Position numbers and translations under genes: made by a program. A model generated the notes under the pieces. It was given only the letters and a program-made list of their open reading frames with translations. It did no database searches and was not told the origin of the DNA. From a bacterium (lineage in GTDB: Bacteria; CLD3; SB21), in the NCBI GenBank assembly GCA_013360215.1, contig JABWCP010000016.1:1-64000 (forward strand): a stretch of DNA of 64,000 nucleotides, written 5' to 3'. Positions 12,913 through 33,200 of the stretch are shown here, in pieces; position 1 is the stretch's first letter; each line of letters opens with the position of its first letter.

Positions 12913-12949
12913 AAGAGGCGACGCAACTTCGGTTCGTCGCCTCTTTTTT
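12913..12949 (+). terminator. Intrinsic terminator after yceI
   Basis: AAGAGGCGACG...CGTCGCCTCTT stem plus T-run. Confidence 0.85.
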
Positions 12950-12985
12950 ATTTAATATCACTCATAGTTTTTTTACATTAATACC

Positions 12986-13435
12986 ATGCGTATCGAAGAG
13001 CGAATACATCAAAAGAAATTTCGTAACGAATACCATAAGCTTTTAGCTAATATCGCCTACCACCATCACTGGCTTATGGTCGAGCAACAAAAATTACTGA
13101 AACCGTTTGGCATTTCATTTACTCAATGGAATGCCTTAAGTATCTTACGCGGCCAATATCCCCATGCGGCTTCGATTCTTTTGATCAAAGAACGCATGAT
13201 TGATCAAAGTTCGGATGTGTCACGTTTGGTTTCACGATTATTACATAAAAAATGGGTTACGCGAACTACTTGTCCGAAAGATCGTCGTCAGGTTGATGTC
13301 GTCATAACACAAAAAGGCCTTGACCTGCTTGCTCAGATTGATCCCTTAGCTGAACAATTTGAAAGCCTGATTACTCATCTTGACGAAAAAGATGCGCAAT
13401 TGGTTAATAGCATCATGGATAAATTGAGAAAGTAA
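12986..13435 (+). CDS. MarR family transcriptional regulator
   Basis: Q.N.L.ILRG, SDVSRLVSRL, DRR.V.V.IT.KG winged-helix pattern. Confidence 0.93.
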   Translation: MRIEERIHQKKFRNEYHKLLANIAYHHHWLMVEQQKLLKPFGISFTQWNALSILRGQYPHAASILLIKERMIDQSSDVSRLVSRLLHKKWVTRTTCPKDRRQVDVVITQKGLDLLAQIDPLAEQFESLITHLDEKDAQLVNSIMDKLRK

Positions 13436-13439
13436 AATC

Positions 13440-14372
13440 ATGCGTTTTTTTATTCTCTTATGTCTATTTAATTTCTCAGCTTGCTCCGTCAAACAGTCAT
13501 CGCCTATTACAGAACAACCTTTTACCCCCTCACACGAATTTAGTTCCTATTGGTATCAAGGGCAGGCTGAAATTACACGTTATGAACTCACGCAAGCCCG
13601 CTATGGCGAATTACGTAAGGGAAATGCAATTTTAATTTTTGTCACGGAGGATTTTCTCACCGAAAAACAAGTCAAATTAGAAAATTATACACCCGATTCG
13701 AAGGCGCATTCAATCCCCATTTTGAAGCTTAATTTTGTTTCAAATTTTAATACCGGCATATACAGCTATTCACCGATGGTTTCCGCATTTATGCCGCTTG
13801 ATACATCTCGCTACCGCTACCCTATCAAAATCACCGGTTCCGTCCAAGAGTGGTGCGGTCTTGTATTTACTCAAATCAATCATCGTAACAATCAATTTAA
13901 CGTACAGAGTTATTCATACTTCGAAAATGAAGGCGACGAATCATATCCTCTTGAACCTGCCTGGCTTGAAGATGCATTGTGGACTAAGGGGCGCCTTGGC
14001 CCGACCGCTTTGCCTACCGGCCGTATTCGAATAATCCCGGGACTTACCCAATCACGATTTTTACACCGTCGTCTGGGTGTGGAAACGGCTGAAGCCTCGA
14101 TTCAGGAGTTACCCGATGATCGCGGACAAACAGGTCCAATCATTTCATACAAAATCGAATATACATCCTACGATCGTACACTCATCATCAACTTCAAAAA
14201 AGCGTGGCCTCACGAGATTACTTCGTTTGAAGGAATTTATATGGATGGTTTTGGGGAAAAAGCCAAGAAACTGCACTCCATTGGCATCAGGACACACACC
14301 ATTAAAACAGACTATTGGACTAAAAATACCAATGCGGACTCCACCTATCGTGAATTGTTGGGCCTTAAATGA
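13440..14372 (+). CDS. Conserved hypothetical lipoprotein
   Basis: Lipobox FSAC at residue 15; YWYQG.AEITRY.L.QARYGE, IFVTEDF, QEWCG and SYFE.EGD motifs recalled from an uncharacterised Bacteroidota-type family. Confidence 0.75.
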   Translation: MRFFILLCLFNFSACSVKQSSPITEQPFTPSHEFSSYWYQGQAEITRYELTQARYGELRKGNAILIFVTEDFLTEKQVKLENYTPDSKAHSIPILKLNFVSNFNTGIYSYSPMVSAFMPLDTSRYRYPIKITGSVQEWCGLVFTQINHRNNQFNVQSYSYFENEGDESYPLEPAWLEDALWTKGRLGPTALPTGRIRIIPGLTQSRFLHRRLGVETAEASIQELPDDRGQTGPIISYKIEYTSYDRTLIINFKKAWPHEITSFEGIYMDGFGEKAKKLHSIGIRTHTIKTDYWTKNTNADSTYRELLGLK

Positions 14373-14977
14373 TACGAGCTATTTTTTTTGATCTTGGAAA
14401 AGTACTTGTAGATTTTGATTGGAATACTGCGGCTGAACATATTTCTCGCAAGTCTGAACTCAAAATCACTGAAATCATTTATCGTTGCACAGCCAGCGAC
14501 ATAGCCATTGCATTTGAATGTGGGCAATTAGATTCAAAAGAGTTCCTTGAAAAACTAAAATTGAGTTTGAGATTTCGAGGAACAAACAATGAACTTCATT
14601 CTTTGTGGACTGAAATTTTTACCCCCATCCATAATAACATTGAACTGCTTTATCGGTTGAAACCACACTATACTTTAGGTTTGATTTCCAATACAAACAC
14701 ACTTCATTTCGATTATATCTGCAACACGTATGATTTTACCAAAGAATTTGACAAACTAATACTATCATACGAAGTTGGTGCGATGAAACCCGCTCGACAA
14801 ATCTTTGAAAAAGCCATTGTCGGTATGAGCCTTCACTCTGAAGAAATAATTTTTATTGATGATATTGCGAAAAATCTAGTTGGCGCTACGGACTTAGGTT
14901 GGCAGACTATACATTATACCGGGCACGACGCCTTGATAAAAAATCTACAAATATTTAATGTTATCATATTAAAATAG
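14369..14977 (+). CDS. HAD-superfamily phosphatase (YihX-like)
   Basis: FDLGKVLVD, ISNTN, KP and FIDD motifs. Confidence 0.92.
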   Translation: MIRAIFFDLGKVLVDFDWNTAAEHISRKSELKITEIIYRCTASDIAIAFECGQLDSKEFLEKLKLSLRFRGTNNELHSLWTEIFTPIHNNIELLYRLKPHYTLGLISNTNTLHFDYICNTYDFTKEFDKLILSYEVGAMKPARQIFEKAIVGMSLHSEEIIFIDDIAKNLVGATDLGWQTIHYTGHDALIKNLQIFNVIILK

Positions 14978-15007
14978 AAAAGAGGGGTTCAATCGAACCC
15001 CTCTTTT
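14978..15007. terminator. Bidirectional terminator between HAD gene and gdhA
   Basis: AAAAGAGGGGTTC-AATC-GAACCCCTCTTTT between convergent genes. Confidence 0.88.
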
Positions 15008-15031
15008 ATCAATATTAATTTCAAATCGCTT

Positions 15032-16372
15032 TTATACCAAACCTTGATCCATCATAGCGTTAGCGACTTTTAAGAATCCGGCAATATTTCCTCCAACCAC
15101 ATAGTTACCCGGGTGACCGTATTCTTTTGCTGTATGCAATGACGTATCGTGTATACTCTTCATGATACCACGCAGACGTTGATCCACCTCTTCAGCGGAC
15201 CACGGCAACCGCATACTGTTTTGTGTCATTTCCAGACCGGATGTTGCTACACCGCCGGCATTGGAAGCTTTACCGGGTGAAAACAGAATACCGGCTTGTT
15301 TGAACACTTCGTAGGCATCCAGAGTACTCGGCATATTAGCGCCTTCGCAAACGCAGATACATCCGTTTTTTACAAGCTCTTTGGCGTCTTCGACGCCAAG
15401 TTCATTTTGTGTAGCGCATGGTACGGCAACATCCACTTTTACACTCCATGGACGTTTGCCGGCATGATACTCTACTTTGAACTCATCAGCGTAATCTTTG
15501 ACGCGGTCTTTACCGCTTGCACGCATTTTGAGCATATAATTTATTTTTTCACCTTGAATGCCGTCTTTGTCATATACGAAACCATCGGGACCTGAAATAG
15601 TAACTACTTTGCCGCCCAATTCCGAAATTTTAAGTGCCGCACCCCAAGCCACATTGCCAAATCCCGATACGGCAAAGGTCAACCCTTTAATGTCTTTACC
15701 TTTGGTGCGCAGCATTTCTTGTGCAAAATAGGTAACGCCAAATCCTGTAGCTTCCGGACGAATCAAAGAACCGCCCCAGTTGATACCTTTACCCGTGAGA
15801 ACACCGGTAAATTCATTTTTCAGCCTCTTATATTGACCAAAAAGAAATCCGATTTCGCGACCACCGACGCCGATATCCCCTGCGGGAACATCCAGATCGG
15901 CACCGATATGTCTGTACAGTTCCGTCATAAAACTTTGGCAAAAGCGCATCACTTCGTTATCACTTTTTCCTTTGGGATCAAAATCCGAACCGCCTTTTCC
16001 GCCGCCCATGGGCAGCGTAGTTAGGCTATTTTTGAAAACCTGTTCAAAAGCCAAAAACTTTAAAATCCCGAGATTGACGGACGGGTGAAAACGTAAACCA
16101 CCCTTATACGGCCCGATAGCGCTGTTCATTTGCACGCGAAAGCCGCGATTGATATGTATTTCTCCCTGGTCGTCTTGCCAAGGAACACGAAACATGACTA
16201 CACGTTCCGGTTCGACCATACGCTCTAATATTTTAGCCGTACGATATTCCGGATGACGGTCTAATACCGGTTCTAATGATTCGGCCACTTCTTGGACTGC
16301 TTGATGAAATTCCGGCTCCGCCGGATTTTTGGCTTTAACTTGCGCCAAAACCGATTTGACGTAGTCTGACAT
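15032..16372 (-). CDS. gdhA: NADP-specific glutamate dehydrogenase
   Basis: GPYKGGLRFHP, GGGKGG, PAGDIGVGGRE, RPEATG, GFGNVA and EGANMP motifs. Confidence 0.98.
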   Translation of the reverse strand: MSDYVKSVLAQVKAKNPAEPEFHQAVQEVAESLEPVLDRHPEYRTAKILERMVEPERVVMFRVPWQDDQGEIHINRGFRVQMNSAIGPYKGGLRFHPSVNLGILKFLAFEQVFKNSLTTLPMGGGKGGSDFDPKGKSDNEVMRFCQSFMTELYRHIGADLDVPAGDIGVGGREIGFLFGQYKRLKNEFTGVLTGKGINWGGSLIRPEATGFGVTYFAQEMLRTKGKDIKGLTFAVSGFGNVAWGAALKISELGGKVVTISGPDGFVYDKDGIQGEKINYMLKMRASGKDRVKDYADEFKVEYHAGKRPWSVKVDVAVPCATQNELGVEDAKELVKNGCICVCEGANMPSTLDAYEVFKQAGILFSPGKASNAGGVATSGLEMTQNSMRLPWSAEEVDQRLRGIMKSIHDTSLHTAKEYGHPGNYVVGGNIAGFLKVANAMMDQGLV

Positions 16373-16916
16373 ACTATGCCTCTACCTGGATTAATTAAAA
16401 CAAATTTTATTCATTTCCGCGCAAATCTCGTTATTTATACTCTGAAAGTCAATATTTTTGGAATGTTATCTGGCGTGAGAGACTCTAGTTACCCCCATAT
16501 TTCGCTAAATTAATTTGGCTTGTGATTGGAATAAATATAGGCCTGCAACTTTATGTTTTAAAACACTCACTTATAGTATTATGGCGTGTAAGTTTGACCG
16601 CATACTTTTGGTTTCCGCTAATTTATGAATATATGTGAGATCTATCCCACATGGAGAGGTCAGCAATATCTTTTAGTTAAATTATTTTTAATTGGGCTAA
16701 AGAAGAACATGCTACATTGTAGCCAATAGGACGAATGCCGATCCTACTATCATGTAGGCATTATTTAAAGAGTGCTCCTTATCGACCAATATACGTACCC
16801 ACCCTTATCCCGAAAGCAGTAAAATAGTTCGCTCGTGCCTGTAGGATTTTCTGGTGAGCATGTAAAGCTTTCCATATTTAGTTGTTGCCCATTAATTGTT
16901 CTCCTATGAATTTTCC

Positions 16917-16948
16917 AAAAAAAAACCCTTCCTCGATGAGGAAGGGTT
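16917..16948 (-). terminator. Intrinsic terminator of the TBDR/CTD-protein/PorV operon
   Basis: AACCCTTCCTC-GAT-GAGGAAGGGTT stem with a long U-tract on the minus strand. Confidence 0.88.
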
Positions 16949-16968
16949 CTTGTCAAAGGAAGATATTC

Positions 16969-18000
16969 TTAGAATTTAAACCCGACGGAAAAACGATGTG
17001 TTCCGCCAAGAATTCCCATATTCAAATAACCGTAATCAACAGTAGCTCCAAAGCTGTCGTTGAATTTATAATCAACACCAGCGCCCATAGTCAAACCGCT
17101 CATACCAGCATCGCTACCGGTATTATAGTCACGGTCTTTTTTCAATGTCGAAGTGTAGCCTGCGCGAGCAAAAAACATATTTTGGAATCCATATTCCAAT
17201 CCAAAATTTGTACGGCTGGCTTGAAAACTGTTAATATTTTGCTCTAACATACCCGTAATCGAATTCTGTTCGTTACGCATCAAATCCATACTGGCACCAA
17301 AATTAACAGAAGCCGGCATATTGAAGAATTCAGACTCATATGCCAAATAAGCCGTTTCGTTCGTCAAAGGATCAACTGTAATGGTTTGTAGGAGACCATC
17401 ACCTTTGTATGATGCTTGAGGGCCAAGGTTGTTTACAACAAAACCTAACTTCAAACCACGGAAATCGGTGTTATAGGTAAAGCCAAAATCAAACGCATAA
17501 TTGCTCGCGCTAACAAGATCAATTTGCGAATTGATAAATTTGACCGTTAAACCGCCGCTTACTCGATCCGTGACTTGTTTGGCAAAAGTTACACCTACGG
17601 AAAGTTCGTAAGGTGCATAATTTCCAATTCCGCCATCAGGATTTGCTTCACTTGTGCGCTGAATATCGCCATAACTCATGTAGTTAATGCTGGCGCCGAT
17701 CACACCTGCATCACCCATGGGAAATGTTATCGCACCGTAGTTTGAAGAAATGCCTGCAAAATGATTCAAATAAGAAAAACTAAATGTCGGCGAAGTAGCT
17801 GCTGACACATTAGCCGGATTCCAATAAATAGCATTGGCACCGGATGTCGTAGTAATGCCCGATTGGCCGAGCGCGACTTCACGTGCGCCCATCGGAACTT
17901 TGAGGAACATAAAGCCGGCCGTACCGCGCTTTTCTTCACCTGCAAAAGCATTGATGGTGTACATCAGTGCCAAAGCTAAGGCTAATATCTTATGTTTCAT
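16969..18000 (-). CDS. PorV/PorQ-family (UPF0164-like) outer-membrane beta-barrel
   Basis: Signal peptide (start ATG 18000 with AGGAG), FLK.P.GAR..ALG, A.YWNPA, NLGP, G.EY and HRFSVGFKF C-terminal beta-signal. Confidence 0.85.
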   Translation of the reverse strand: MKHKILALALALMYTINAFAGEEKRGTAGFMFLKVPMGAREVALGQSGITTTSGANAIYWNPANVSAATSPTFSFSYLNHFAGISSNYGAITFPMGDAGVIGASINYMSYGDIQRTSEANPDGGIGNYAPYELSVGVTFAKQVTDRVSGGLTVKFINSQIDLVSASNYAFDFGFTYNTDFRGLKLGFVVNNLGPQASYKGDGLLQTITVDPLTNETAYLAYESEFFNMPASVNFGASMDLMRNEQNSITGMLEQNINSFQASRTNFGLEYGFQNMFFARAGYTSTLKKDRDYNTGSDAGMSGLTMGAGVDYKFNDSFGATVDYGYLNMGILGGTHRFSVGFKF

Positions 18001-18071
18001 ACTTTCTCCTTTTGTGATTAGTAGTCCCGCCGACAATGTCGGCGGGGTTACTTTAAACTGCTTCAATACGA

Positions 18072-21000
18072 TTATCGAATATCCGGACCGCTAATCGTAT
18101 ATTTCTCCATGATGACAGCAAATTTCACTGTCTTCTTACCATATCCAGGAGCGTCAACTAACGCAATATACATTCCGCTTGCAACACCATCACCGGTTTC
18201 GTTCAGCAGATCCCATATTTCTGTGCTGGTTTGGGCTGCTGTCGCATCGAAAGTGATATCCAACGGATTGGTATTTAAACGATCGTTGTTGGAACCTGCA
18301 GTATGACGCAACGTGCGCACAAGGTCACCGGCGACAGTAAATATACGGATCGTACATGTACCCGGCAGACCTGTGAATTTGACGCGTTTGTCAAATAAGC
18401 TAGCCTGGTATGTCGAACGGCCGTAGTAAGGATTAGGTACTACAAGAATACCATCCATACCTTTTTTCTTTGCACTGGATGTCGTAGCCGTTTTACCAGC
18501 CGTCGTAGAATAAGTGTATGTATCCGACGGTGTAAGTACGTGATTTACACGGAATTTGAACGTACCATTATCAATCCAGTTGGAGAAGATATTATGACGT
18601 TCTGCTGCCGTGATAGCCGTTCCACCATCTGAGCCGGCACCGCGAGCCGTGACATATAAGCCATGTAACGTCGCCGCATCGGCATCCGGCGCTGAAGAAA
18701 CTGCGTCACCACGATATCCCATCCACATGACAGCGTAGGAAACTTTATCATATGGCGCAGTATAAAAGCCCAGAGCGCGCGTACCGCCGCTATAGGAGTT
18801 GGTGTCAAAGTATGTATAGTTAAAGCGACCGACACCACCTGAAGTGTAAGAATTAACACCGTCCATTGTCCAAGCATCGAATGTATCACGATCGCGGAAG
18901 TTCACTTCGATTTGACGCGGAGCGGTATTACCGTCTGTTTCATCCACTTCGAACACGGAGAAAGGAGCCAACGTAGTATCATTAGAAGCCGCGGTGGAAC
19001 CTGTGCCGTGTTTGTAAATGACCTGCCATCCCGAAGGATCGCGGCTCATCACGATATCAAAGTCACGACGATCCGGTATCTCAACGCCACCGATACCCCA
19101 GAATTCTTCAGTAAACTCAATAACTCCACCAAATTCGGTAAGCCCGCCGGGACCTGACCACCAGCGAGTTTCTTTTCCTAATCCTGTGCGATAAGCACCG
19201 TATTCGTATGAAGAACTCTTCCAACCGCTGGCATCTGTTACTTTGATCATAACGCCATCAACGATGCCGAATTCTTCCTGATCCGGATGACCCGCTTGGG
19301 CAATCGTTGTGTTAAATAAGCGATCATCGTACACATAGTCGCTATCATTAGGAGCGGTCTTATCCGGATTATAAACTCCATTATTATCCACATCCACGTA
19401 CGTATCGGGATTGTCCACAAGATTTGAAAAAGCAACCGTCTGATTCGTTGTCGTATTGATCACGCGATACGCGAGTGTTCCTTCGGCGATACCATGGAGC
19501 GGTTTGCCATCCGCCGAATCATTGGTTGTAAACATTTCGATACGGTAGTTATTACCAGTCACTGCACCGGGATTGACCACTTCGATTTCGACAACGCCGT
19601 CGCTTGGTCCTGCGTGTGTAAGCGTTGAAACTGAACCGTTAAAGTCGTTTCCTGCCACGGCCGCCATCGGCGTAACGGCGGTCACATTGGAGCCCGTTGA
19701 GGTCTCAAGTGAACGCGGCACAACCGCAAACGGGTAAGGTACATTACCCATCAAAGGATCATTAATTAAAACATTGGCTATAGCAATGTAAGGCTGAGCA
19801 TCATATGCCGTAACAGAATAATAATATGTCGTAAGATTGGTTACTTCTTCATCTACATAGCTATAACGCAAACCATTATCAGTGCCCAGGATTATTTCAC
19901 GGCTTGAGAGGGTACCATTGGCATCAAAATACAGCTCCCGAATTCCCGTGATACCGTTATTATCATCATATTGCGCGAGCTGCGTAAAGGAGCCGGGTAA
20001 ACCGGTCAAACTGCGATATACGCGATATCCTTCGAAGTCCATCACACGATAATCTGCGGTATATGGGGTTTCTGGATTCGTGGTACGTATATAGGCTTTA
20101 TTGGGATCGCCGAAATGATCTTCGGAATATTCCGAATTATTTTTCCAAGTTACAACTACTTTTCCGTCCAAACCGGCCAAGGACATTAGAGGTACATCCG
20201 GCGCTGACGGCGCTGCCAAATCCGCATCAAAAATAGTCTGGATCAAGTCATCCGTAGCAAACATTTTAGCTACGGCATTAAGGTTATCTACCGTACTGTT
20301 GGTACGATTTACATTAGCACCGACCACACCGGCCCAAACTTCCTGACGTGCACCGGCAACCACTTCAAACGGGCCTACACCGTGTAGAATACGTTTATCC
20401 GTTGGATTCGCATCAAGGGGGCCGGTCTGCGAAACAGGATCACCAGGGAAGAACCAACCACCATACGAATTTGGGCTAACTGATCCGGCATTAGTCAAGC
20501 CTCTTAATAAGTTATAACGTTCCGTGTTATTATTAGGATCGCCATTGTTATTGTACGTATTAAGCGTCGTAGCGCCAAGCCAAATCGAATCGCCACCTAA
20601 TGTGCGACTAGCTACTAAACCAATATTTTCATCAATAACTTTCACTTTTTTATGACCAGCGTTTTTGACAGCCAAAAAAGGCGAAACACTTGCCGCAGAA
20701 ACTACAGGACCCTGGAAGAAATCAAAACCAACGGCCGAATGAGCATCACTTTCATCAACATTGTATACGAAGCCCAAACCGCGTGAAGAGTCGGAACCGA
20801 TTAAATCGTTGCCCGAATTATCCACATCGGCATCCATCCACAGACCCAAATAAGAATTCGGATAATTTGTGTTGGTTTTGTTGTCAAATATGAACTTCAA
20901 AAAGACGCCATCGCCCGCATCACCGCGATCGGCTAATACGATGGATTCGAGGGTAATTTGAATACCAAGACCGGCATAGGGACTGGAGGTTGTACCTTCC

Positions 21001-21614
21001 TGGCTCAGTGTGGTATCCAAATCATTGAAAACAGCCCACGTAATGCCTACACCGCCAGAGGAATATAAGTAGGGATCACCTGATGAAGTTTTATCACCAG
21101 GCCATGCTAGCCAATCCGCATTGTTTTCACTGGAGGCGTCTCCAGATTTCTCGTCAATATAGTATACTTTATATTCAGGAAGCAGCGGATCCGCAGCTGT
21201 CAACTGTTCAAATGGAACGTTGGAGTTCGTGATCGGACCAGGTTGAAACTCCGTTCCAAACTGAGTCTCAGACACAACCGGTACACCATTCTTGATAGTA
21301 CCCAACCATGCACCGGCTGCGAACACGATGGTGACATTACTTCCCTGAGGGAATTCGCCTCCTGCGTTATTACCATTTTCGTCGGCATCCGGCGAATCAT
21401 ACATAAAGGAACCTTGATTACGCATTACGTAATTCCAATTCGTTCCTTTACGTTTAACAAATATAATGTCCACAATATCCGGTTTACGTAATTTCATTTT
21501 AAGACGCGTATTCGCATCTACTTTTGCAATACTTGCAGTATTCATCGTTGCTATTAAGGCGACTACCGCCGCAACGACTACCGCAGGTATTACTATCCAC
21601 TTTTTCATACTCAT
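18072..21614 (-). CDS. Large secreted protein with FN3-like module and T9SS/FlgD-Ig-like C-terminal sorting domain
   Basis: Signal peptide; V.VTW..DFEGYRVYRS..YSYVD..YYYSVTAYD (FN3-like); C-terminal VVPNPY..IRIFTVAGDLVRTL..WDL.N..G..VASGMYIALV..K..KFAVI. Confidence 0.8.
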   Translation of the reverse strand: MSMKKWIVIPAVVVAAVVALIATMNTASIAKVDANTRLKMKLRKPDIVDIIFVKRKGTNWNYVMRNQGSFMYDSPDADENGNNAGGEFPQGSNVTIVFAAGAWLGTIKNGVPVVSETQFGTEFQPGPITNSNVPFEQLTAADPLLPEYKVYYIDEKSGDASSENNADWLAWPGDKTSSGDPYLYSSGGVGITWAVFNDLDTTLSQEGTTSSPYAGLGIQITLESIVLADRGDAGDGVFLKFIFDNKTNTNYPNSYLGLWMDADVDNSGNDLIGSDSSRGLGFVYNVDESDAHSAVGFDFFQGPVVSAASVSPFLAVKNAGHKKVKVIDENIGLVASRTLGGDSIWLGATTLNTYNNNGDPNNNTERYNLLRGLTNAGSVSPNSYGGWFFPGDPVSQTGPLDANPTDKRILHGVGPFEVVAGARQEVWAGVVGANVNRTNSTVDNLNAVAKMFATDDLIQTIFDADLAAPSAPDVPLMSLAGLDGKVVVTWKNNSEYSEDHFGDPNKAYIRTTNPETPYTADYRVMDFEGYRVYRSLTGLPGSFTQLAQYDDNNGITGIRELYFDANGTLSSREIILGTDNGLRYSYVDEEVTNLTTYYYSVTAYDAQPYIAIANVLINDPLMGNVPYPFAVVPRSLETSTGSNVTAVTPMAAVAGNDFNGSVSTLTHAGPSDGVVEIEVVNPGAVTGNNYRIEMFTTNDSADGKPLHGIAEGTLAYRVINTTTNQTVAFSNLVDNPDTYVDVDNNGVYNPDKTAPNDSDYVYDDRLFNTTIAQAGHPDQEEFGIVDGVMIKVTDASGWKSSSYEYGAYRTGLGKETRWWSGPGGLTEFGGVIEFTEEFWGIGGVEIPDRRDFDIVMSRDPSGWQVIYKHGTGSTAASNDTTLAPFSVFEVDETDGNTAPRQIEVNFRDRDTFDAWTMDGVNSYTSGGVGRFNYTYFDTNSYSGGTRALGFYTAPYDKVSYAVMWMGYRGDAVSSAPDADAATLHGLYVTARGAGSDGGTAITAAERHNIFSNWIDNGTFKFRVNHVLTPSDTYTYSTTAGKTATTSSAKKKGMDGILVVPNPYYGRSTYQASLFDKRVKFTGLPGTCTIRIFTVAGDLVRTLRHTAGSNNDRLNTNPLDITFDATAAQTSTEIWDLLNETGDGVASGMYIALVDAPGYGKKTVKFAVIMEKYTISGPDIR

Positions 21615-21696
21615 TGTATAACTCCTGTATTTGATAACTATCTTCGCTTGTAATATAGAGGGTGCTTTCGGATGAAAGCACCCTCCGGATCATACA

Positions 21697-24633
21697 TTAG
21701 AAATTGAAGATAACGCCAAGACGTGCTTGACGGGGTGTATCCCAACTAAAGCCATCATGATGATTGACATCATATTGTGGCAATCTACGTGCTTTTTCTA
21801 CTTTTGAATAGTCGTTCCATTCAGGCGAATTGATAAAACCTGAATCATCAGCACGACCACTACTTGCAAATACCGTGTTCACGTTTTTACGATCAAGAAG
21901 GTTTAACACTTGGACGTAAAGATTGACATTCATGTTCTCATTGATATAAAACGTCTTATCCGCTTTCATATCAATGCGGAATGTCCACGGTGAGCTTTGT
22001 GAATTACGGCGTGCTGTAGCATTACCTGCCGGTACACCAGTTTGCTGGATCGCTACTACCGTCGTCGGAGTATACGGGAAACCACTACCAGCGGACACGA
22101 GGAAGTTTAGTCCTGCATTCTCAATGATATTCATACCTCCTACGGACGGGCCCTCACCTTTACCATTACGCACATCTACATTGGCATTAATGTTGTGACG
22201 TTGATCAAAATTCAAAGGGGCATTAAAACGGGCCGTGTTGAATCCAAGCCAGGAAGCACGGAAATTAGAATTTGTTCCCGAACCTGACCCTGTAGCTGTC
22301 TGCAGAGTATAAGCCAAACGACCGGAGAATTTACCTATACGACGGGCCTCAAGTGAAATATTCACGCCCTGTATAACGCCGGCATCCTCGTTATCATAGA
22401 TGATTAATCCATTGGGTATCGAAGTGATCGGGCTTGAATTCACAAGATCCGTAATATCCTTGTAGTATGCTCCGACGTCAAGTGCTACCTTATCACTCAA
22501 CGCACGGCGAAGTCCGACTTCATATTGTGTGCTCTTTTCAGCTTGAAGATTGGGATTTCCCAATGTCGTTGCAAACGGAGCATTTAACGATTGTTTTTCG
22601 AGAAATGCCGGGGAAACATACAAATCTTGCAAATTTGGCTGTTGGAAGAATCTACCATAGCTCATACGGAACTGCGTTTTTTCAGAAATCGGGAAGCTGA
22701 TCGAAAAACGCGGAGAAATACGATGGTCTGTCTTAGCTGAAGTATAGTCTTCTGAGCCTAAAACTTGATCAGCACCGGTAGGATTACCTAGATCTTTAAC
22801 ACGTTTCACACCGGGGTTAAACGCGTCATAACGAATACCAGCACGCAATACTAATCCTTCGTATTCTAGTTTGTCTTGAACAAACGTCGAGAAACTTGTC
22901 GGATGCGGAGGTCCCATAATCGGAGTTTCCGCATTTAGATTATCAGAATTAACCTTCTTAAATTTGATTTTGCCAGATGAAGTGACATAGCCTTTGTATC
23001 CGATGTTATCATTGGAACCTGTAACCGGATTGTCAATATCAAGGATATTCAAATAACGAATCGTGTGATAAAAATAATCCGCACCAATTTTGATCTGATT
23101 GTGCTTATCCAATTGGTTGGTATAGTTGGCTTTGAACGCAATATACTGGTCATCATCACGACGATAATTGAGTATGCCGTTATTCGGATCAAAAAGGAGA
23201 TTATCCGCTTCGTACGTTCTAAAACCTGTTGAACCTTTTTGACGATCCGCATATTCACCCACATTATCAAACTCAAGAAAATCATTCATGAGCTTACGGG
23301 TATTGGAAAAATAGTTGATCCCCAAATCAAAAAAGCTGTTTTGATCCATAGTATAGGTTGCTATAGTACCTACGTTTAGGTTTTGAATCTCACGGCGAAG
23401 ATTGTCGGCGAGAGACAACGTTCTGGCAACCGTATTGCTACGGCGGACCGTATTACTATAATTACCCGATACGTCAATTCGCAGTTTGTTCGGCATTACG
23501 TCAAAGGTTAACTTGGCTTGAAGGTTTGTTCCTCTATCGGAATTAATACCCGCGCCGGAAAGACCGTCAGGACGTGCACCTTTTTTATATTTTACATTGC
23601 CGTTTTTGTCAGTTTTCCAAATAACGGTATCAATCGGTACTTTAGGCGTACTACTAGGCGTATCACCATCACCATCATGGTCATACAAACGGGCACCTTT
23701 TTCAAGTTCAAACTCAGGATAGCCCCAAACACTAGGTTCCGCATCATCTATTTCACGCACTTCACCGGAAACAAAGAACCGAATCATGTTATTATTCGGA
23801 ATCAACGGTCCACCGAAACCCGCACTCAACACTTTATAACCATAGGTTTCCGCAATACCGAGACCGGCCGGATCACCGACAGCTTCGATATTACCGCTAT
23901 AACGTTGCGAGCCTGATTTCGTTGTCACTTGAATAATACCCGATTGATTACGTCCGTATTCCGCATCAAAACCACCAGTAATCACTTGCACTTCTTCCAC
24001 GGCACCCGAAGGTACATTGGCATTGGAAGTACCGGTCAAAAGGTTGTTTTGTTGGAAACCGTCCATATATACACCGGTTTCAGACGAACGACCGCCGCGA
24101 ACATTGACATTGGCAGTACCACCGTCAAGGTTACGGGTATTGCTGACCACGATACCGACGCCAAGGTTAGCCGCCGCCTGGAAACCACGAACCGGCAGGT
24201 TCTTGATTTCTTCAGCCGTCGTAACGGACATCGTCATGGTTTGATCTTTTTGGATCAAAGGACGCTCGGCAACAACTACCTGCTCTTCGCCAGATACCGA
24301 CGTAGCAGAAATTTCGAAGTCCAAACGTGTCGTAAAGTCCGGAATCACACGGACGTTTTGTTTGGTCAACTTCGTGTAACCGATCATGCTTGTGGCCACC
24401 GTATAAACACCGGCGGGAACGTTGAGGATCGTGTACTCACCTTTGGCGTTGGTCGTTGCGCCCATGGAAGTACCCTCGATCAGGATATTCACACCCGGAA
24501 GTGCGTCACCCGATTCCTTGTCTTTTACCACACCGGTGATCTTGCCCGTATTACCTGCAAACAGGTACATCGGAAGCAAGAACACCATTGTTGCCACCAG
24601 CAACAATCGTTTTAGTCTCGTACTACCAGACAT
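21697..24633 (-). CDS. TonB-dependent receptor with N-terminal CarboxypepD_reg-like domain
   Basis: GKITGVV.D..G..LPGVNI..G..Y.I.NVPAG; plug motifs VRGGR..E..GGFDAEYG..SGII..TTK; NPNL.AEK..YEVG; C-terminal PRQARLGVIFNF. Start set at ATG 24633 (GGAGGA SD, signal peptide); the frame stays open to 24717. Confidence 0.93.
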   Translation of the reverse strand: MSGSTRLKRLLLVATMVFLLPMYLFAGNTGKITGVVKDKESGDALPGVNILIEGTSMGATTNAKGEYTILNVPAGVYTVATSMIGYTKLTKQNVRVIPDFTTRLDFEISATSVSGEEQVVVAERPLIQKDQTMTMSVTTAEEIKNLPVRGFQAAANLGVGIVVSNTRNLDGGTANVNVRGGRSSETGVYMDGFQQNNLLTGTSNANVPSGAVEEVQVITGGFDAEYGRNQSGIIQVTTKSGSQRYSGNIEAVGDPAGLGIAETYGYKVLSAGFGGPLIPNNNMIRFFVSGEVREIDDAEPSVWGYPEFELEKGARLYDHDGDGDTPSSTPKVPIDTVIWKTDKNGNVKYKKGARPDGLSGAGINSDRGTNLQAKLTFDVMPNKLRIDVSGNYSNTVRRSNTVARTLSLADNLRREIQNLNVGTIATYTMDQNSFFDLGINYFSNTRKLMNDFLEFDNVGEYADRQKGSTGFRTYEADNLLFDPNNGILNYRRDDDQYIAFKANYTNQLDKHNQIKIGADYFYHTIRYLNILDIDNPVTGSNDNIGYKGYVTSSGKIKFKKVNSDNLNAETPIMGPPHPTSFSTFVQDKLEYEGLVLRAGIRYDAFNPGVKRVKDLGNPTGADQVLGSEDYTSAKTDHRISPRFSISFPISEKTQFRMSYGRFFQQPNLQDLYVSPAFLEKQSLNAPFATTLGNPNLQAEKSTQYEVGLRRALSDKVALDVGAYYKDITDLVNSSPITSIPNGLIIYDNEDAGVIQGVNISLEARRIGKFSGRLAYTLQTATGSGSGTNSNFRASWLGFNTARFNAPLNFDQRHNINANVDVRNGKGEGPSVGGMNIIENAGLNFLVSAGSGFPYTPTTVVAIQQTGVPAGNATARRNSQSSPWTFRIDMKADKTFYINENMNVNLYVQVLNLLDRKNVNTVFASSGRADDSGFINSPEWNDYSKVEKARRLPQYDVNHHDGFSWDTPRQARLGVIFNF

Positions 24634-24994
24634 AATGTCCTCCTTCTGTTGGTTATTAAGAGCGTGTACGATGAATGAATTTTTTTCGATAAGTTTAGTA
24701 ATCATATCTTTTCTCATTTACCTCCTTTGTAAATGCACATAGATAAGAAATGTGTTTTTCCGACTTGACATCTGCTTCTGAGATTAATTCGACCTACCCT
24801 TTCGTTTTTTTGTGAAAGAATCAGCACTACGGTTACAAGCGTGCCGCCCTCTCCTTCACATCATACTCAAGGATACTGCTTTCAGAGAACAGTTTTAAGA
24901 GAACGTTATTAAAAAGATTTGTTTACAACCCGGCAACAAGCTTTTTGAAAAGACTAGGGACACTTATTGCACAAGATAAGGTTTTACAATAAAC

Positions 24995-25023
24995 AATATA
25001 GGCGGCCTTAAAATTATTGTCAA
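24995..25023 (-). promoter_or_regulatory. Strong sigma70-type promoter for the TBDR operon
   Basis: TTGACA-17 nt-TATATT on the minus strand. Confidence 0.7.
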
Positions 25024-25310
25024 GCTTTTTTTGGGAACCCGGTTTTACTTGGTTTTAAGACCACGATGGGCACTTTGAGCTAATCAATAAAACCTTAATA
25101 CCTAGATAATATTCCCGCCCTAATTACAAAACTACCGAAAAAACGAAAGAAATAAGTTTTCCACCCCCTTCTAAATTTTTTAAATTTTTTCATTCATACG
25201 TAGAATCCGGACATGACACGCTCTTTTCATGCACATATCCGCAATACCGGTACCGTAATAATAGAAGTACGATGCGTTGTGGTTTTATTACAAAGTTTTT
25301 TAAAAAGATT

Positions 25311-25339
25311 TTGCGCCAACACGATTTAATCTATATATT
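25311..25339 (+). promoter_or_regulatory. Putative smc promoter
   Basis: TTGCGC-17 nt-TATATT. Confidence 0.5.
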
Positions 25340-25491
25340 AGCCGCCCCAAAGCGAAATGATACGCTTTTTCGTGTTATTTAGTATGGATATACTATAATA
25401 ATACAGTGCTAGTTTACTAAAAGATGATTTCCTGATTAACAGGAAACTTATTTAAATTTTGATTTTGTTAGGCTTATAAGGAAATAACGGC

Positions 25492-28400
25492 ATGTATTTG
25501 TCACGGCTTGAAGTTTTCGGTTTTAAAACATTTGCGCAGAAAGTGGATCTTCGTTTTGACGAGGGTATCACCAATATCGTCGGCCCCAACGGCTGTGGTA
25601 AGTCCAACGTCGTAGATGCCCTCCGCTGGTCACTCGGTGAACAAAAAGCCAGTATCCTGCGTTCCGAAAAAATGGAAAACGTCATTTTTAACGGAACCAA
25701 ACAACGTAAGCCCCTCAATTTTGCCGAAGTCAGTCTGACCATACAGAACACCAAAGGTATCCTGCCGACGGAATATACCGAAGTCACGATCACCCGTCGG
25801 ATATACCGATCCGGTGAAAGCGAATATTTCCTAAACCGCCTCCCTTGCCGCCTCAAAGATATCAATGATCTTTTTATGGATACCGGTATGGGCGCGGACG
25901 CGTACTCCGTGATAGAGCTCAAGATGGTCGAACAAATCTTGTCCGATAAAACGGAAGACCGCCGGAAAATGTTCGAAGAAGCGGCGGGCATTACCAAATA
26001 TAAAATTCGTCGTCGTCAGACGTTTAACAAACTGCAAACGACCAAACTCGATCTCAACCGCGCCAACGATATCATCGTCGAAATCGAAAAAAAGGTCAAT
26101 TCCCTCAAACGCCAAACTCAAAAAGCCAAGCGCCACATGAAACTGTCCGCCCGTCTCAAATTGGCGGAAGTCCAACTGGCGCATCATGAATACCAAAAGT
26201 TTGCCGCGCAACTGGCGCCGATGGCCGAAAAACTGGAAAACCTCGAGTTTGTCGCCGAACAAATGCTGGGCGAAATTTCCAAAAAAGAAGCCGAAGTCGA
26301 GGCCATGAATACCGGCCTGATCGAGCGCGAACAAAGTTTACGTGCGATCCAACTGCAACTCGAAGAGCAGGATAAAAAAATCAAAACAATCGAGGATGAA
26401 ATCCTCGTCAGCCGCGAGCGCAAAAAAAATCTTGAAGCGATGATAGGTCGCTATGCAGAAGAAAAAACCGCATTGGAAGCCAAGCGCGAACAACTGCAAG
26501 CCCGCATCACCGAACTCTCCGCGACGCTCGCCGATTTGGAATCGCAATACAACGGTATGTCCGGAACCGTCGAAGCCAAAAAAACGGAAATGCTGGAGTT
26601 TGACCAGCAGATACAAGCCAAACGTACCGAACTGGATACCGTACGTAAACAATCCGTACAACTCATCGACGAAGTGGCTAAAAAACGCAATGCGTTTCAA
26701 CTCACTAAAAACAATATCCAGAATATCGAACGCAAAATCGCCGATCTGCATCGCGAAGGCGAATTTCATAACACCTCATCCGAAGACGCGATCAGCGCGC
26801 TGGATGAAAAACGCTATGAAAAGAAAAAACTCGGCGAACAAGTTGAAGCGTTGCGTAATAAAATAACGGCTGACCAATCGGCTTTAGATACGCTTCGCCA
26901 TACACTGGACGATTTGCGCTCTAAAAAGCTGCATGATGAGGCCGAAATCAAAGCGCTGCATGCCAAGATGGCTATTATTCAAAAAGCCATCGAAAATCAT
27001 GAAGGGTTTCCCGAAAGCGTTCAGTATATCCTATCTTCCAAACCGTCCGGCATTCAAGCAACGGTCGCCGATATGATCGCGACGGATGATACGTACAAAA
27101 AAGCAATCGAAACTGCACTCGGCGATTCCTTCGCCTACCTTGTGGCCGGCGGAAGTGATCACGTGCACGACGCGCTGACCCAGCTCAATACCAACAAAAA
27201 AGGCAGTGCGACATTCCTCAATCGTCAAAAAATCGGGCAATTCAAACCTGCTTTTGAAGCCGAAGCACTTGCTTCCGTACGCGGCGAGATCATCGGAATG
27301 GCTACCGAACTGGTGCGATGTGATGATCCGGCAATGGCGCGTCTGCTTTTGAGCGATGTGGTGATCGTCGAAAATTTTGAAAAAGCAACGCGGCTTGCCG
27401 ATCAATTTCCCGCTGTACGTTTCGTCACATTGCAAGGTGAAATCGTCAAAGGCAATTATCTCATCAAAGGCGGCGGTACCGTCAAATCATCCGATAGCCT
27501 TATCGGTCAACGCGAAGCTTTGAATAAACTGCAGGATCAGTTATCCCAATACGAAGCCTCCGTTCGCCGTTATCAGGACGAACTGCAGACTACCGACACT
27601 ACGCTGCGCGAACTCACCCAGACGATCGCAAATAATCAAAATCTTCTGAAGAATACTGAGCAAAAATTTGTCGCTCTGGAAAAAGAAATAGCCCAATCCG
27701 AATACGAACAAAAACGTTCTCGTGAATCCTTGACACGCAATGAGGATGCGCTTCTGCAAGCGCAGCGTGAGATGGAAGCGTTTCAGCTTACCATCGAAGA
27801 TATGGGGCCTGAAATGGATGAACTCGAAGGCCGGCGCGGTTCGCTCGAACTTGAAACCCGGCGCATGGAACAACAGCTCGCCGAACTGGAAAAGCAGCGG
27901 CGCGAACGTTCCGAAGGATTCAACGAAATGATTTCATCCTTTCTCCGTATGGAAGGAGAAATCAAAACAAACCGCAACAATATCGAATCCAGCCGCACAC
28001 AAATTGCAGATATTGAAGCAACCATTCTTCGTCGCGAAGAAGAAACTGTCGCCGCTGAAAATGAAATTGCCCGTATGGGTGACGTTTTCACCGAACGCGA
28101 AGGCGAACTCATCACTCTTTCGCGTGAACGCGACGTGATCGAACGCAACCGCGATGCCGAAGGTACCGAAGTCGCCCGTCTGCGTGAAACGACCGGAAAA
28201 ATAGAAGCCGAGTTGAAAAAAATGCGCCGTCAGCGCGAAGAATTCCTCAACTCACGCCATACCATGGAGCAAGAAACGACCAATCTTCGTTTTGAACTTC
28301 GTGCGCTGGAAGAACGCATCAAACGCGATCACGATTTTGACTTGACCAAAGACTCCATCGAAATACTGATCCTCAGTACGGAACCCGGCAGTAAAGAAGA

Positions 28401-30201: not shown

Positions 30202-33200
30202 ATGAACCCTACGCGCCGTCTCCTGATCATTGCTTTTTTTTTCAGCGCTATCCCGGCATTGGGCCAACGCCTCTTCGTTCGCCATTATTCGACCGCCGAA
30301 GGGTTGCCTCAAAATCAGGTTTTTGCCATTCATCAGGATCAACATGGTTTTCTTTGGTTTGGAACCGGCGGCGGCCTCAGCCGATACGACGGGCGTCAAT
30401 TTCGCAATTACACCAAAGAACATGGCCTAGCCAGTAATGTCATCCGGGCCATTCATCGCGACAAAGATCAAAACCTTTGGTTGGCTACCGATGAAGGTAT
30501 CAGTTGTTACTTAGCCCAACGCGACACATTTATCAGTTATCATTCCGATCATATCGGCCAAGGTACGGTGCGCGCTATAGCCGGAGACGATCGCCGGCTC
30601 TGGTTTGCTACGGCCGGCGGACTTACGCGTTATGATTTTAACGATCATTCGTTTATAAACTTTACCACGGCCAACGGTTTACCTGCCAATCTCGTTCAAG
30701 CCGTTACTGTAACGGCCTACGGGAAAGTTTTCATCGGAACCAATCAGGGACTGGCTGTGATGCACGATCCGGTCAGTGATCGTATCGAACAAGTTCCAAT
30801 CCCTGGAAATAACAAATTACTTCTCCATGTCGAAGCGCTTTATTGTGATGCACGCAACCGTATTTTTGCCGGAACGCAAGGCGGTGTCATACGCATTGAC
30901 AGTCTCAAACCGGAAATCATCAGCACAGCGGACGGTCTTACCAATCCTGTCATCCGAGGTATTACAAGCGACCAATCCGGTCACATCTGGTTTGCTACCG
31001 AAGACGGGCTTTATGTCATGACCCGATCAGAGCGCCCTTACTTATTTAACAGCTACACCACACGCAATGGTTTTTTTGCCAATCAATATTACGCTGTTTT
31101 TCAGGATTCCGAAAACAACCTTTGGTTTGGCTCCTCCCGCGGTGTCAGTAAACTGATTTCCGCTGACCTCATTTCATACACCGAAGCAGAAGGTCTTGGC
31201 AACGATGTCGTGATCGGCATAACAAAGGCTACGGATAAAACATGGTATATTACTACCAACGACGGTATTTCCATTTTTCGCGAAGGACGGTTTCAGAACC
31301 TGTCAGACACAGAAGGTCTCATTGCCAAAGAAATATGGGATGCCGCAACGGATTCGGCGGGAGTAATATGGTTAGCGACCTATCGCGGTCTTCAGGCTTT
31401 GCTTCCCAAAGAACCGCGCACGCGGCTTCCGATACATACCAAACTTCCGCGTGCAGGCACTATATCATCCGGATATTACAATCTTACCTTACCGCCTAAC
31501 GATTTTATACATAATAACCGCATCGTGGATGTTTTGGTTGACCGCCGCGGACGCATTTGGTTTGCCAGCACGGATAAAGGAACGGGTTACGTTGAAATCA
31601 ATTCGACCGGTGAAATTTCCGTTCGAACATTTACTACCGCAGACGGTTTGTACAGTAACAACGTATGGATGATCTATGAGGACCGGCGCGGGCAAATATG
31701 GGCGGGCACGATCGGCGGCGGTATAGCGCGTTGGGATGAGGTATCTCAGCGTTTTACCAGCCTCAATAAAGGTCGCGGGCTTTCGGACGATGTCGCATTA
31801 AGTATTTACGAAGACCGACGCGGCGGTTTATGGATCGGCACTGAGCGCGGCGCGATGCGTTTGGCACCGGAAATCGTGAGCGGAGATTCTTTTCCCGGCG
31901 ATCTGCGTTCATACATTAGATTAGTGTCTAAACGCGACGGCTTGTCCGATAATACCATCAATGCGATTGTGGAAGATTCGGAAGGCATGATTTGGCTGGG
32001 TACGAATAACGGGCTTAATCAATTTAATCCCGAAACCGGGCTGACGCTTCAAGTTTACAACAAAAAGCGAGGCCTTATTGACAATGAAGTAAGTACACAA
32101 AACGCACTGCGCTTTTATGATCACGAGACCTTGATCGTCGGTACCAGTGCCGGTATCACGTTGCTGCCATTACGTTCATTTCGCTCGCCCCTACCGACCC
32201 GACCTGTTGTTTTGATGCAAGAATTTATGGCCGAAGATAATGCCAACAAAACGACCCGGTTGATCCCCATTGCCATGCGCCCCGATACAAACGTTTCGGA
32301 TGCATTTTTCAGTACACTTCGTACATCCGTACCGGTGGTCAGTTATCTCGAAAACAATATCACATTTCGTTTTGTAGCGCCGTCGTTTAAAGATGAAAAT
32401 GATGTGCGGTACCGTTACCGTTTACGCGGCTTTGACCGATTTTGGTCGGACCCGACGCCGGAAAATCATGTGCGTTATACCAACCTCAACGACGGTGATT
32501 ACGTATTTGAGGTAATCGCCGGCAACGGCAATGGCGCCTGGAGCGACGTTCCCACCCGCGTAACGTTTTCTGTCATGACGCCCCTATGGAAAAGCTGGTG
32601 GTTCATCACTTTTTCAATCACATTTTTCAGTTTAAGCATTTATACCGCTTATAAGTTCCGCGCCAATATCGCACGCCAACGCACCGCCGAACTTGAACAA
32701 AAAGTATTGCAGCGTACACGCGAATTGGTCGTACAGAAAGAGACCGTCGAGCGTATTTTGAACGAACTCAAAGAAACGCAGATCCATCTGATACACTCCG
32801 AAAAAATGGCTTCACTTGGTCAGATGGTAGCCGGCATTGCGCATGAGATCAATAATCCGGTCGCTTTCGTCAAAGGTAATATTTCATTATTGGAACGGCG
32901 GCTTCATGATCTGGAACGCGTATTCACCAGTTTCTCCGACGTTTTTGATTTCTACGATAAATTCAACGAATTCAGCGACGATCTACACAAAGATTTTCGC
33001 GCCAAACTGGAAGAAATAGATCGTATTATTGCGTCGACGCGATTTGAAAAATTTTTAGGCGATCTGCCTCAAGTTGTCAACGAAATGCGGGACGGAGTGG
33101 ATCGCACGCAAAAAATCGTAGAAGATCTGCGAAATTTTTCACGTCTGGACGAATCGCAATTCAAAGAAATTTCCATCATTGATAGCATTGAATCCACACT

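Follow-up and report, generated by a model that had tools for sequence, protein, structure and literature searches.

A conserved gene triad of uncultured bacteria encoding a TonB-dependent receptor, a candidate type IX-exported protein, and a PorV/PorQ-family barrel

We analyzed a stretch of 64,000 nucleotides from a bacterium of the GTDB lineage CLD3; SB21 (assembly GCA_013360215.1, contig JABWCP010000016.1, positions 1 to 64,000 of the forward strand), referred to below as the window. On its minus strand lie three co-oriented genes, the triad, which encode a TonB-dependent receptor, a large protein with a signal peptide, and an outer-membrane barrel of the PorV/PorQ family (Table 1). Our best reading of the triad is a self-contained, vertically co-inherited three-protein outer-membrane module for nutrient capture, of an apparently undescribed kind. 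A sequence-only reading of the same stretch had proposed that the three genes share one promoter and one terminator and form an operon without a SusD lipoprotein, a hydrolase, or a regulator, and our results agree on both points. The longest open reading frames (ORFs) run from 24717 to 21697, from 21614 to 18072, and from 18066 to 16969. A promoter-like site precedes them, and a terminator hairpin with its T tract lies directly 3' of the barrel stop codon; our consensus scan of the window did not flag this hairpin. The operon contains no SusD, hydrolase, or regulator gene; SusD and hydrolase genes are absent from the whole window, and no regulator gene adjoins the triad. Housekeeping genes flank it: one neighbor is glutamate dehydrogenase, and at the opposite end lie SMC and a base-excision glycosylase.

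We place the receptor start at ATG 24633, which has AGGAGG ahead of it, opens a signal-peptide-like stretch, and has the same context in a relative, locus L002. For the barrel, ATG 18000 is the most likely start; TTG 18066 is the longest possible. The promoter-like site and its A-tract are kept in three of five aligned loci (the window, L002, and L020). As a class, such sites are not enriched in the window, where a promoter scan found 26 against 21.0 ± 4.7 in shuffled sequences.

Table 1. Coordinates of the triad, its parts, and related features. Positions are those of the window unless a locus (L) is named.
Feature	Position	Strand	Basis
Promoter-like site, sigma-70-type, TTGACA-17-TATATT	24995..25023	-	11/12 consensus matches; upstream A-tract
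Presumed 5' leader, ~355 nt, promoter-like site to receptor ATG	24634..24994	-	Alignment with L002 and L020
TonB-dependent receptor, 978 aa	21697..24633 (longest ORF start 24717)	-	Pfam domains above cut-off
Signal-peptide protein, unnamed family, 1180 aa	18072..21614	-	Translation, AlphaFold
N-terminal beta-supersandwich of the 1180-aa protein, residues 50–470	20205..21467	-	AlphaFold, invariant columns
C-terminal beta-sandwich of the 1180-aa protein, residues 1041–1180, divergent type IX C-terminal domain (CTD), predicted barrel anchor	18075..18494	-	NCBIfam, Foldseek
PorV/PorQ-family 14-strand-type outer-membrane barrel, 343 aa	16969..18000 (TTG 18066 longest)	-	NCBIfam
Intrinsic terminator: 9-bp G+C-rich stem, 4-nt loop, T9	~16917..16948	-	Read directly from sequence
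Dockerin paralogs of the N-terminal module	L009:8833-11790; L036:8836-10323; L062:8728-11778; L063:5160-8078		

The three genes are rarely found apart. In a scan of one genome per GTDB species, at least 593 of 604 pattern matches were confirmed as homologs of the large protein, and we searched the best 80 loci (L001–L080) for the window receptor and barrel by tblastn. In a first count, 65 of the 73 loci with at least 1 kb of upstream sequence have the receptor as the next gene upstream, in the same orientation, and 58 of the 65 with at least 1 kb downstream have the barrel as the next gene downstream; both neighbors were present in 56 of 62. A refined count delimits the genes more carefully; it differs from the first, in which the several paralogs of L004 and of L043 had been merged. 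The CTD is reached in 64 of the 80 matches, 60 of which were testable on both sides, and 57 of those 60 carry the full triad in the same order and on the same strand. This neighborhood survey, one of the checks proposed with the sequence-only reading, thus finds the triad kept together, with exceptions in L003, L004, and L080. Clustering of all flanking ORFs in the best 80 loci, with antisense ORF clusters 7, 12, and 13 of high-GC loci disregarded, revealed no fourth conserved gene.

By the submitters' labels, the best 80 loci come from Zixibacteria (16), Ignavibacteria (16), Eisenbacteria (11), other Bacteroidota (10), Marinimicrobia (6), Calditrichota (2), and Zhuqueibacter (2), with one each from KSB1, GN15, and Gemmatimonadota and 12 unclassified. 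Two contigs of about 2 kb are labeled Actinomycetota and Acidobacteriota, labels that we do not trust. The sequence-only reading had named Ignavibacteria, Calditrichota, and KSB1 as groups with similar triads, and loci with all three labels are indeed present. None of the best 80 loci or the named homolog rows belongs to a cultured carrier. In the literature, subscription journals and supplements aside, we found no description of a triad of receptor, CTD protein, and PorV-family barrel. Congruence of the three trees had been another proposed check. Across 40 complete triads (of 46; six with truncated members were left out), the tree distances of the three proteins correlate with r of 0.82–0.89 (Mantel p 0.001 for each), which, with no unlinked control gene in the comparison, shows co-inheritance as a block and not co-evolution or contact.

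Paralogs with a different C-terminus behave differently. All four paralogs that lack the CTD and were testable on both sides (in L009, L036, L062, and L063) end in a type I dockerin, and none of the four has the receptor or the barrel as a neighbor, against the full triad in 57 of 60 CTD forms. The C-terminus is thus an anchoring module that can be swapped, and both neighbors accompany the form that has the CTD. The dockerin paralogs sit among other dockerin proteins, in L062 together with C25 gingipain-like and C11 clostripain-like peptidases, and a search with a Zixibacteria-like ortholog returned many further dockerin-ended relatives. This suggests cohesin–dockerin surface assemblies in Zixibacteria- and Ignavibacteria-type genomes.

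The first gene product had been described as a TonB-dependent receptor of about 980 residues, and it is one. A plug and a barrel follow its N-terminal domain, which is carboxypeptidase-regulatory-like, and all three score above the Pfam cut-offs for CarbopepD_reg_2 (68.8 bits), Plug (47.8 bits, cut-off 23.9), and TonB_dep_Rec_b-barrel (106.8 bits, cut-off 27). Between the N-terminal domain and the plug lies a V-x-A-E-R-P-L-I stretch, which may be the TonB box; E123 is invariant across orthologs, and A122 and P125 are at least 90% conserved. The orthologs are 28–72% identical and share 35 invariant columns. We rejected two more specific identities for the window receptor: it has no match at E ≤ 0.1 to TIGR04056, the SusC/RagA model (cut-off 368.25 bits), and no Oar-type match in Pfam. 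TIGR04056 is matched weakly by 30 of 32 receptor orthologs (best E 2.3e-24). No close solved structure was found for the window receptor. As a separate observation, the anammox S-layer model NF052345 gives weak matches to 21 of 32 triad receptors (best E 2.6e-14); these matches probably run through the carboxypeptidase-regulatory-like domain.

The second gene encodes the 1180-residue signal-peptide protein that had been predicted, as its translation and N-terminal hydrophobic helix confirm. A signal peptide (residues 1–30) is followed by an N-domain (50–470), an FN3-like module (471–640), an Ig-like domain (641–735), a variable, mixed region (736–1040), and the CTD (1041–1180). The first 40 residues contain no Cys and hence no lipobox. 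AlphaFold, run with a 34-row alignment, modeled a chain that is almost entirely beta (pLDDT 81.3, pTM 0.74). The protein matches no Pfam family at E ≤ 0.1, and it belongs to a large family all the same: a first sequence search gave 98 homologs, and among 1.84 billion representatives of 50%-identity clusters there are 4341, 2162, and 381 relatives at E ≤ 1e-3, 1e-10, and 1e-30, respectively. The Zixibacteria-like ortholog, used as query, retrieved 2122 proteins. Named rows among the relatives are all hypothetical or 'T9SS sorting domain' proteins, ESM Atlas gave only unnamed clusters and no usable named match, and a profile search of the PDB yielded no solved relative beyond the PorZ tail (E 0.064). 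Whole-model Foldseek results were dominated by multi-domain noise.

Modeled alone, the N-domain is a confident beta-supersandwich (pLDDT 91.6, pTM 0.92). A Foldseek comparison with the PDB, which had been proposed for this part of the protein, returned weak matches to the accessory N-terminal sandwiches of glycoside hydrolase (GH) families GH94, GH15, GH116, and GH149, as well as to the copper amine oxidase sandwich, all with TMq 0.23–0.41 and 7–12% identity. By these structural models the likeness is one of fold class and not of kinship. We rejected an identity as a glycoside hydrolase or phosphorylase of those four families because only the accessory sandwich aligns and the AlphaFold model has no helical catalytic domain, whether (alpha/alpha)6 or equivalent. 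The invariant residues of the N-domain include a GFDFFQGP motif and an Asp cluster, D261/D263/D270, in the sequence MDADVDNSGND. Loops of the DxDxDG type are a precedent for Ca2+ binding, and by that likeness the cluster is a probable Ca2+ site. The sequence-only reading had instead pointed to a DVDNNG loop; that motif is present at residues 741–746, but it sits in the least conserved region, and the conserved Asp cluster is the one in the N-domain. Its FN3-like module survives in part: the AlphaFold strands and a conserved pattern (W490, Y530, Y597-YY-x-VTAYD) across residues 477–640 fit FN3, whereas Pfam fn3 gives no match.

A recognizable catalytic motif had been noted as missing from the large protein, and we likewise could not recognize it as a stand-alone enzyme. 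Catalytic Pfam domains occur in none of 34 aligned family members and in none of 20 fused or longer forms. These longer proteins join the first half of the N-domain to cohesin, FG-GAP/ASPIC, BNR, LRR, or dockerin modules, and most of these proteins also carry a canonical Por_Secre_tail. This evidence fits a binding module better than an enzyme.

The third gene product had been described as a PorV/PorQ-like barrel. It scores 197.3 bits on the PorV/PorQ family model NF033709 (cut-off 90), covering model positions 1–326 of 326, and 33 of 33 orthologs match the same model. It is neither PorV proper (equivalog NF033710, 88.4 bits, cut-off 250) nor PorQ proper (equivalog NF033711, 129.5 bits, cut-off 220, the alignment stopping at model position 191 of 335). 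The PorQ model scores higher than the PorV model for the window copy and across the 33 orthologs (best E 1.5e-42 versus 3e-25). In a profile search of the PDB the barrel matched Flavobacterium johnsoniae PorV (6h3i_F, E 1.7e-25).

The T9SS/FlgD-Ig-like CTD that had been ascribed to the large protein fits the fold and the predicted docking on the barrel; by sequence it is supported weakly, by a match to the tail of PorZ and none to Por_Secre_tail. The PorZ tail is the only family match of the CTD (NCBIfam E 5.6e-6, model positions 664–756 of 757); it is also the part of PDB entry 5m11 found by the profile search and the top Foldseek match of the full model. Four relatives bear the NCBI name 'T9SS type A sorting domain-containing protein'. 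No other domain is better conserved: the CTD ranks first in 33 of 33 pairwise homolog rows, sharing that rank in one, and residues 736–1040 are the least conserved region across the family. One would not expect the best conservation in a tag that is removed once export is complete, and we presume that the CTD is kept uncleaved. Precedents are described: PorZ keeps its CTD, which is bound to PorQ, and cognate PorV-like barrels are proposed to protect CTDs from cleavage and to anchor their cargo, in the way of PorP/SprF barrels and type B CTDs (PMC10202324).

Complex modeling of the barrel with the CTD, also among the checks originally proposed, is consistent with such an anchor. The barrel paired with residues 1030–1180 scored 0.93 (runs 0.93, 0.93, and 0.92) and the best of three controls, which included no non-cognate PorV or CTD, scored 0.01. 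The pair thereby passes a mark that 116 of 157 solved complexes attain, as do 2 of 215 mismatched pairs; these counts apply approximately here, where custom alignments were used. At least 93% of contacts agree among runs, and partner pLDDT is at least 68. Invariant residues of the CTD (P1060-N1061-P1062, G1096, and S1146-G1147) and G26 of the barrel line the modeled interface. The models thus support a CTD that stays on its cognate PorQ-like barrel. The first reading had left open whether the barrel holds or shuttles the large protein. Holding is favored, with PorQ and the uncleaved CTD of PorZ as the closest analogy because the barrels score higher as PorQ than as PorV and the CTD matches the PorZ tail only; shuttling by PorV, or a pair like SprF–SprB, fits less well.

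Taken together, the triad can be read as a binding protein that the type IX system exports and that a PorQ-like barrel of its own anchors next to the receptor. We hold this reading as a whole tentatively, at slightly less than an even chance. In it, the receptor would be the energized import channel, as its family, its conserved plug, and its TonB-box-like region indicate. The large protein would leave the cell in two stages, first through Sec and next through the type IX system, a route suggested by the signal peptide and the CTD-like fold. Its CTD, presumably uncleaved, would stay on the extracellular face of the barrel encoded by the adjacent gene, so that the protein is not released, as with PorZ on PorQ; complex modeling and gene co-occurrence support this step. 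Finally, the anchored N-domain sandwich (probably Ca2+-stabilized), the FN3/Ig stalk, and region 736–1040 would capture a substrate and pass it to the receptor, a step for which conserved gene order is the sole pointer. In Bacteroidia, SusD, RagB, BtuG, or surface glycan-binding lipoproteins perform this task. The sequence-only reading had likewise proposed the large protein as lid or substrate-capture partner of the receptor, and such a role stays putative. A broader version, which we regard as possible and hold a shade less firmly, is that many phyla of the Fibrobacterota, Chlorobiota, and Bacteroidota (FCB) group outside the well-studied Bacteroidia possess a SusD-independent 'utilisome'. 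Its partner protein would be type IX-exported and not a lipoprotein, and a PorQ-like barrel of its own would keep it beside the transporter, with the CTD as a permanent anchor; in paralogs, a dockerin or a canonical CTD could re-anchor the same capture module. Besides lipoprotein export and Slam-type export, this would be a third route by which TonB-dependent transporters acquire surface partners.

Several observations weigh against the anchored-binding-protein reading. The CTD of the window protein has no match at E ≤ 0.1 to PF18962 (Por_Secre_tail) or TIGR04183, and in the family Por_Secre_tail is found in 1 of 34 members and FlgD_ig in 5 of 34. Core genes of the type IX system (SprA/Sov, PorK/L/M/N, PorU) are absent from the window; a sign of the system is indirect, in canonical Por_Secre_tail cargo that adjoins the triad in the relatives L001, L006, L020, L008, and L051. 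The full-length CTD paralogs in L003, L004, and L080 lack an adjacent barrel and a receptor of the family; their CTDs match the PorZ tail too, and they may use a barrel encoded elsewhere. Because PorV structures have been solved (6h3i, 8gl6, and others), the complex score may reflect a likeness to PorV–CTD docking and not the exclusivity of this pair. The correlated tree distances speak for block inheritance only, as noted. Lastly, the conserved acidic residues of the N-domain could be catalytic instead of Ca2+-binding.

That last point leads to the strongest of four alternatives, none of which we consider likely. The large protein might be a surface-anchored enzyme of an unrecognized class, a hydrolase or lyase that acts on a polymer and feeds its products to the receptor in the manner of SusG or a surface protease. 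The N-domain has invariant residues that could serve such a role (D198, D261, D263, D270, D298, D406, R408, and Q459), and supersandwiches are catalytic in some families, including the copper amine oxidase found among the Foldseek matches. Degradative type IX cargo also occurs in some neighborhoods, such as the S8 subtilases of L008 and L080. Neither Pfam nor NCBIfam gives a catalytic family match, however, the glycoside hydrolase resemblance is confined to accessory N-terminal sandwiches at the low scores given above, and fused forms bear binding-type modules only. We therefore regard an enzyme as unlikely, though the best placed of the four.

It is somewhat less likely again that the barrel is a general PorV/PorQ component and the large protein an ordinary, abundant type IX cargo, with no specific complex between them. 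The barrel passes the PorV/PorQ family model, any PorV-family barrel with any CTD would score high if the docking geometry is generic, and the paralogs of L003, L004, and L080 manage without an adjacent barrel. A general component would hardly be expected to fall so far below the equivalog cut-offs (88 versus 250 for PorV and 129.5 versus 220 for PorQ). Nor would it be expected to adjoin its cargo in 57 of 60 cases across many phyla and in none of four when a dockerin replaces the CTD. L022 has two further PorV-family genes within 9 kb, which shows that paralogs exist, and the CTD is more conserved than the remainder of the large protein.

Next, the receptor-like barrel could serve the export, assembly, or anchoring of the large protein and not import, which we consider improbable. 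In Myxococcus, the Oar receptor is needed for PopC secretion. A review table lists PG0534, a 92-kDa 'TonB-dependent receptor', as needed for type IX function. The dockerin paralogs, moreover, lose the receptor together with the barrel, as an export role would have it. Against this, the plug domain and the motif that precedes it are conserved as in importers, and Pfam gives no match to an Oar-type barrel family. A receptor gene followed by the gene of its partner is also the order of SusCD-type importers. Equally improbable is an adhesin or surface-coat role for the large protein on its barrel, with the receptor co-transcribed for unrelated reasons: the multi-domain beta-sandwich architecture with FN3 and Ig domains, the recurrence of an N-domain piece in cohesin, FG-GAP, and LRR surface proteins, and the existence of dockerin-anchored paralogs would suit it, but an unrelated receptor would not persist upstream in 65 of 73 loci, across phyla, at 28–72% identity and with 35 invariant columns.

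We compared the triad with known systems. It shares with SusC–SusD, RagA–RagB, and BtuB–BtuG a surface-partner gene directly after the receptor gene, a carboxypeptidase-regulatory-like extension of the receptor, and a presumed capture-and-hand-over. Complexes of receptors with surface lipoproteins are described as ubiquitous in Bacteroidota (PMC12578637). In contrast to these pairs, the triad partner lacks a lipobox and a match to the SusD, RagB, or BtuG families, is about twice the size of their partners at 1180 residues, and carries a type IX CTD-like domain at its C-terminus. TIGR04056 is not matched by the window receptor, and the barrel adds a third gene. Judged by its sequences, the triad falls outside SusCD-type systems on receptor and partner alike.

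On the anchoring side, the nearest precedents are PorQ–PorZ (and PorV–PorU) of Porphyromonas gingivalis, in which a barrel binds a retained CTD; the triad CTD matches the PorZ tail and the barrel is closer to PorQ than to PorV. Unlike PorZ, the large protein shows no similarity to PorZ outside the CTD, and the barrel falls below the PorQ equivalog, is linked to a receptor, and implies no role in lipopolysaccharide delivery. Clustered genes for cargo and a cognate small barrel are likewise found in SprF–SprB and other PorP/SprF barrels with type B CTD cargo, and a PorP/SprF-type barrel has been proposed to anchor its cargo (PMC10202324). The triad differs in that its barrel belongs to the PorV/PorQ family (TIGR03519 weakly matches 2 of 33), its CTD is not type B (CHU_C in 1 of 34), and a receptor is included. 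By these analogies the anchor would resemble PorQ–PorZ and SprF–SprB and belong to neither.

Two further systems invite comparison. BamG, a 14-stranded FadL-type barrel, is described as holding the surface protein BamH via extracellular loops (PMC12578637). The likeness lies in a barrel that holds a surface protein, and the BamG model gives weak, marginal matches to 5 of 33 triad barrels (best E 5.9e-7); the triad, unlike BamG–BamH, has no BamA or BamD context. Cohesin–dockerin assemblies are related through the paralogs of the N-terminal module that end in a type I dockerin, whereas the window copy has no dockerin.

Whatever its function, the triad ranks among the best-conserved outer-membrane gene clusters of uncultured FCB phyla from sediments, soils, and the dark ocean, and the large protein founds a big family that has no Pfam entry (the 2162 representatives at E ≤ 1e-10). 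If the anchored-binding-protein reading is true, it would show how a transporter can be given a capture device in bacteria that lack SusD, and it would extend to hundreds of species the PorQ–PorZ principle that a CTD can be an anchor and not just a signal. It would also tie type IX secretion to TonB-dependent uptake in a concrete and testable way, and in metagenomes the three genes could then serve as a marker that is read as a single functional unit.

Neighboring genes in scattered loci give some weak hints about the substrate. An S8 subtilase cargo lies beside the triad in L008 and L080. After the triad of L012, at 12944-17519, are genes for an NlpC/P60 endopeptidase, a mandelate-racemase-type epimerase, and an Amidase_3 protein, a set typical of murein-peptide recycling; the same ORF clusters are also found in L014, L032, and L033. 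An aminotransferase gene precedes the triad in L022 (by Pfam) and in L023, L042, and L046 (by cluster membership), and glutamate dehydrogenase neighbors the triad in the window and also in five further loci, there by cluster membership. Because of the S8 subtilases, the peptidoglycan-peptide genes, the aminotransferase, the glutamate dehydrogenase, and the peptidases near a dockerin paralog, these hints lean toward protein or peptide material rather than a defined glycan, a lean that is doubtful and at best well short of even. Separately, a gene for a GWxTD-domain protein directly follows the triad in L008 (13591-14967) and L043 (13278-14696), and the same ORF cluster is present in L055 and L075; these loci belong to different phyla.

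Some paralogs outside the standard arrangement have neighbors of their own. Directly after the CTD paralogs of L003 and L004 are genes for lipobox proteins of about 280 residues (L003:12583-13422 and L004:10330-11172) that match no Pfam or NCBIfam family and are 29% identical to each other (E 2e-35). The paralog of L080 lies two genes after a shorter, different receptor, within an array of type IX cargo. In L022, a few kb past the triad, a CTD-bearing BNR/sortilin protein is followed by another PorV-family barrel (14384-18207), and a third PorV-family gene lies at 19317-20267. Given this second pair of cargo and barrel, pairing a cargo with its own barrel may be a wider habit in triad-bearing genomes.

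The presumed leader upstream of the receptor gene yielded little. In L002 and L020, the leaders are of similar length (~350 nt), and their sequence is poorly conserved except for a short CTGTTCTCTGAAA-like patch. The fold of the leader is not unusual (z 0.61). A known RNA element was sought and rejected: no Rfam family matched at E ≤ 1 in 16300-25600 except for terminator look-alikes, and the weak matches to leader and small RNA families at 16910-17020 are the terminator hairpin itself.

Two plus-strand genes of the window lie farther away. At 30202-33627, about 5.5 kb from the triad, is a gene for a sensor kinase with Reg_prop beta-propellers and Y_Y_Y, HisKA, and HATPase domains; it has no receiver or DNA-binding domain, and the SMC and glycosylase genes lie between it and the triad. 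The other, at 35611-38175, encodes an outer-membrane protein of the LptD_2 family with 854 residues.

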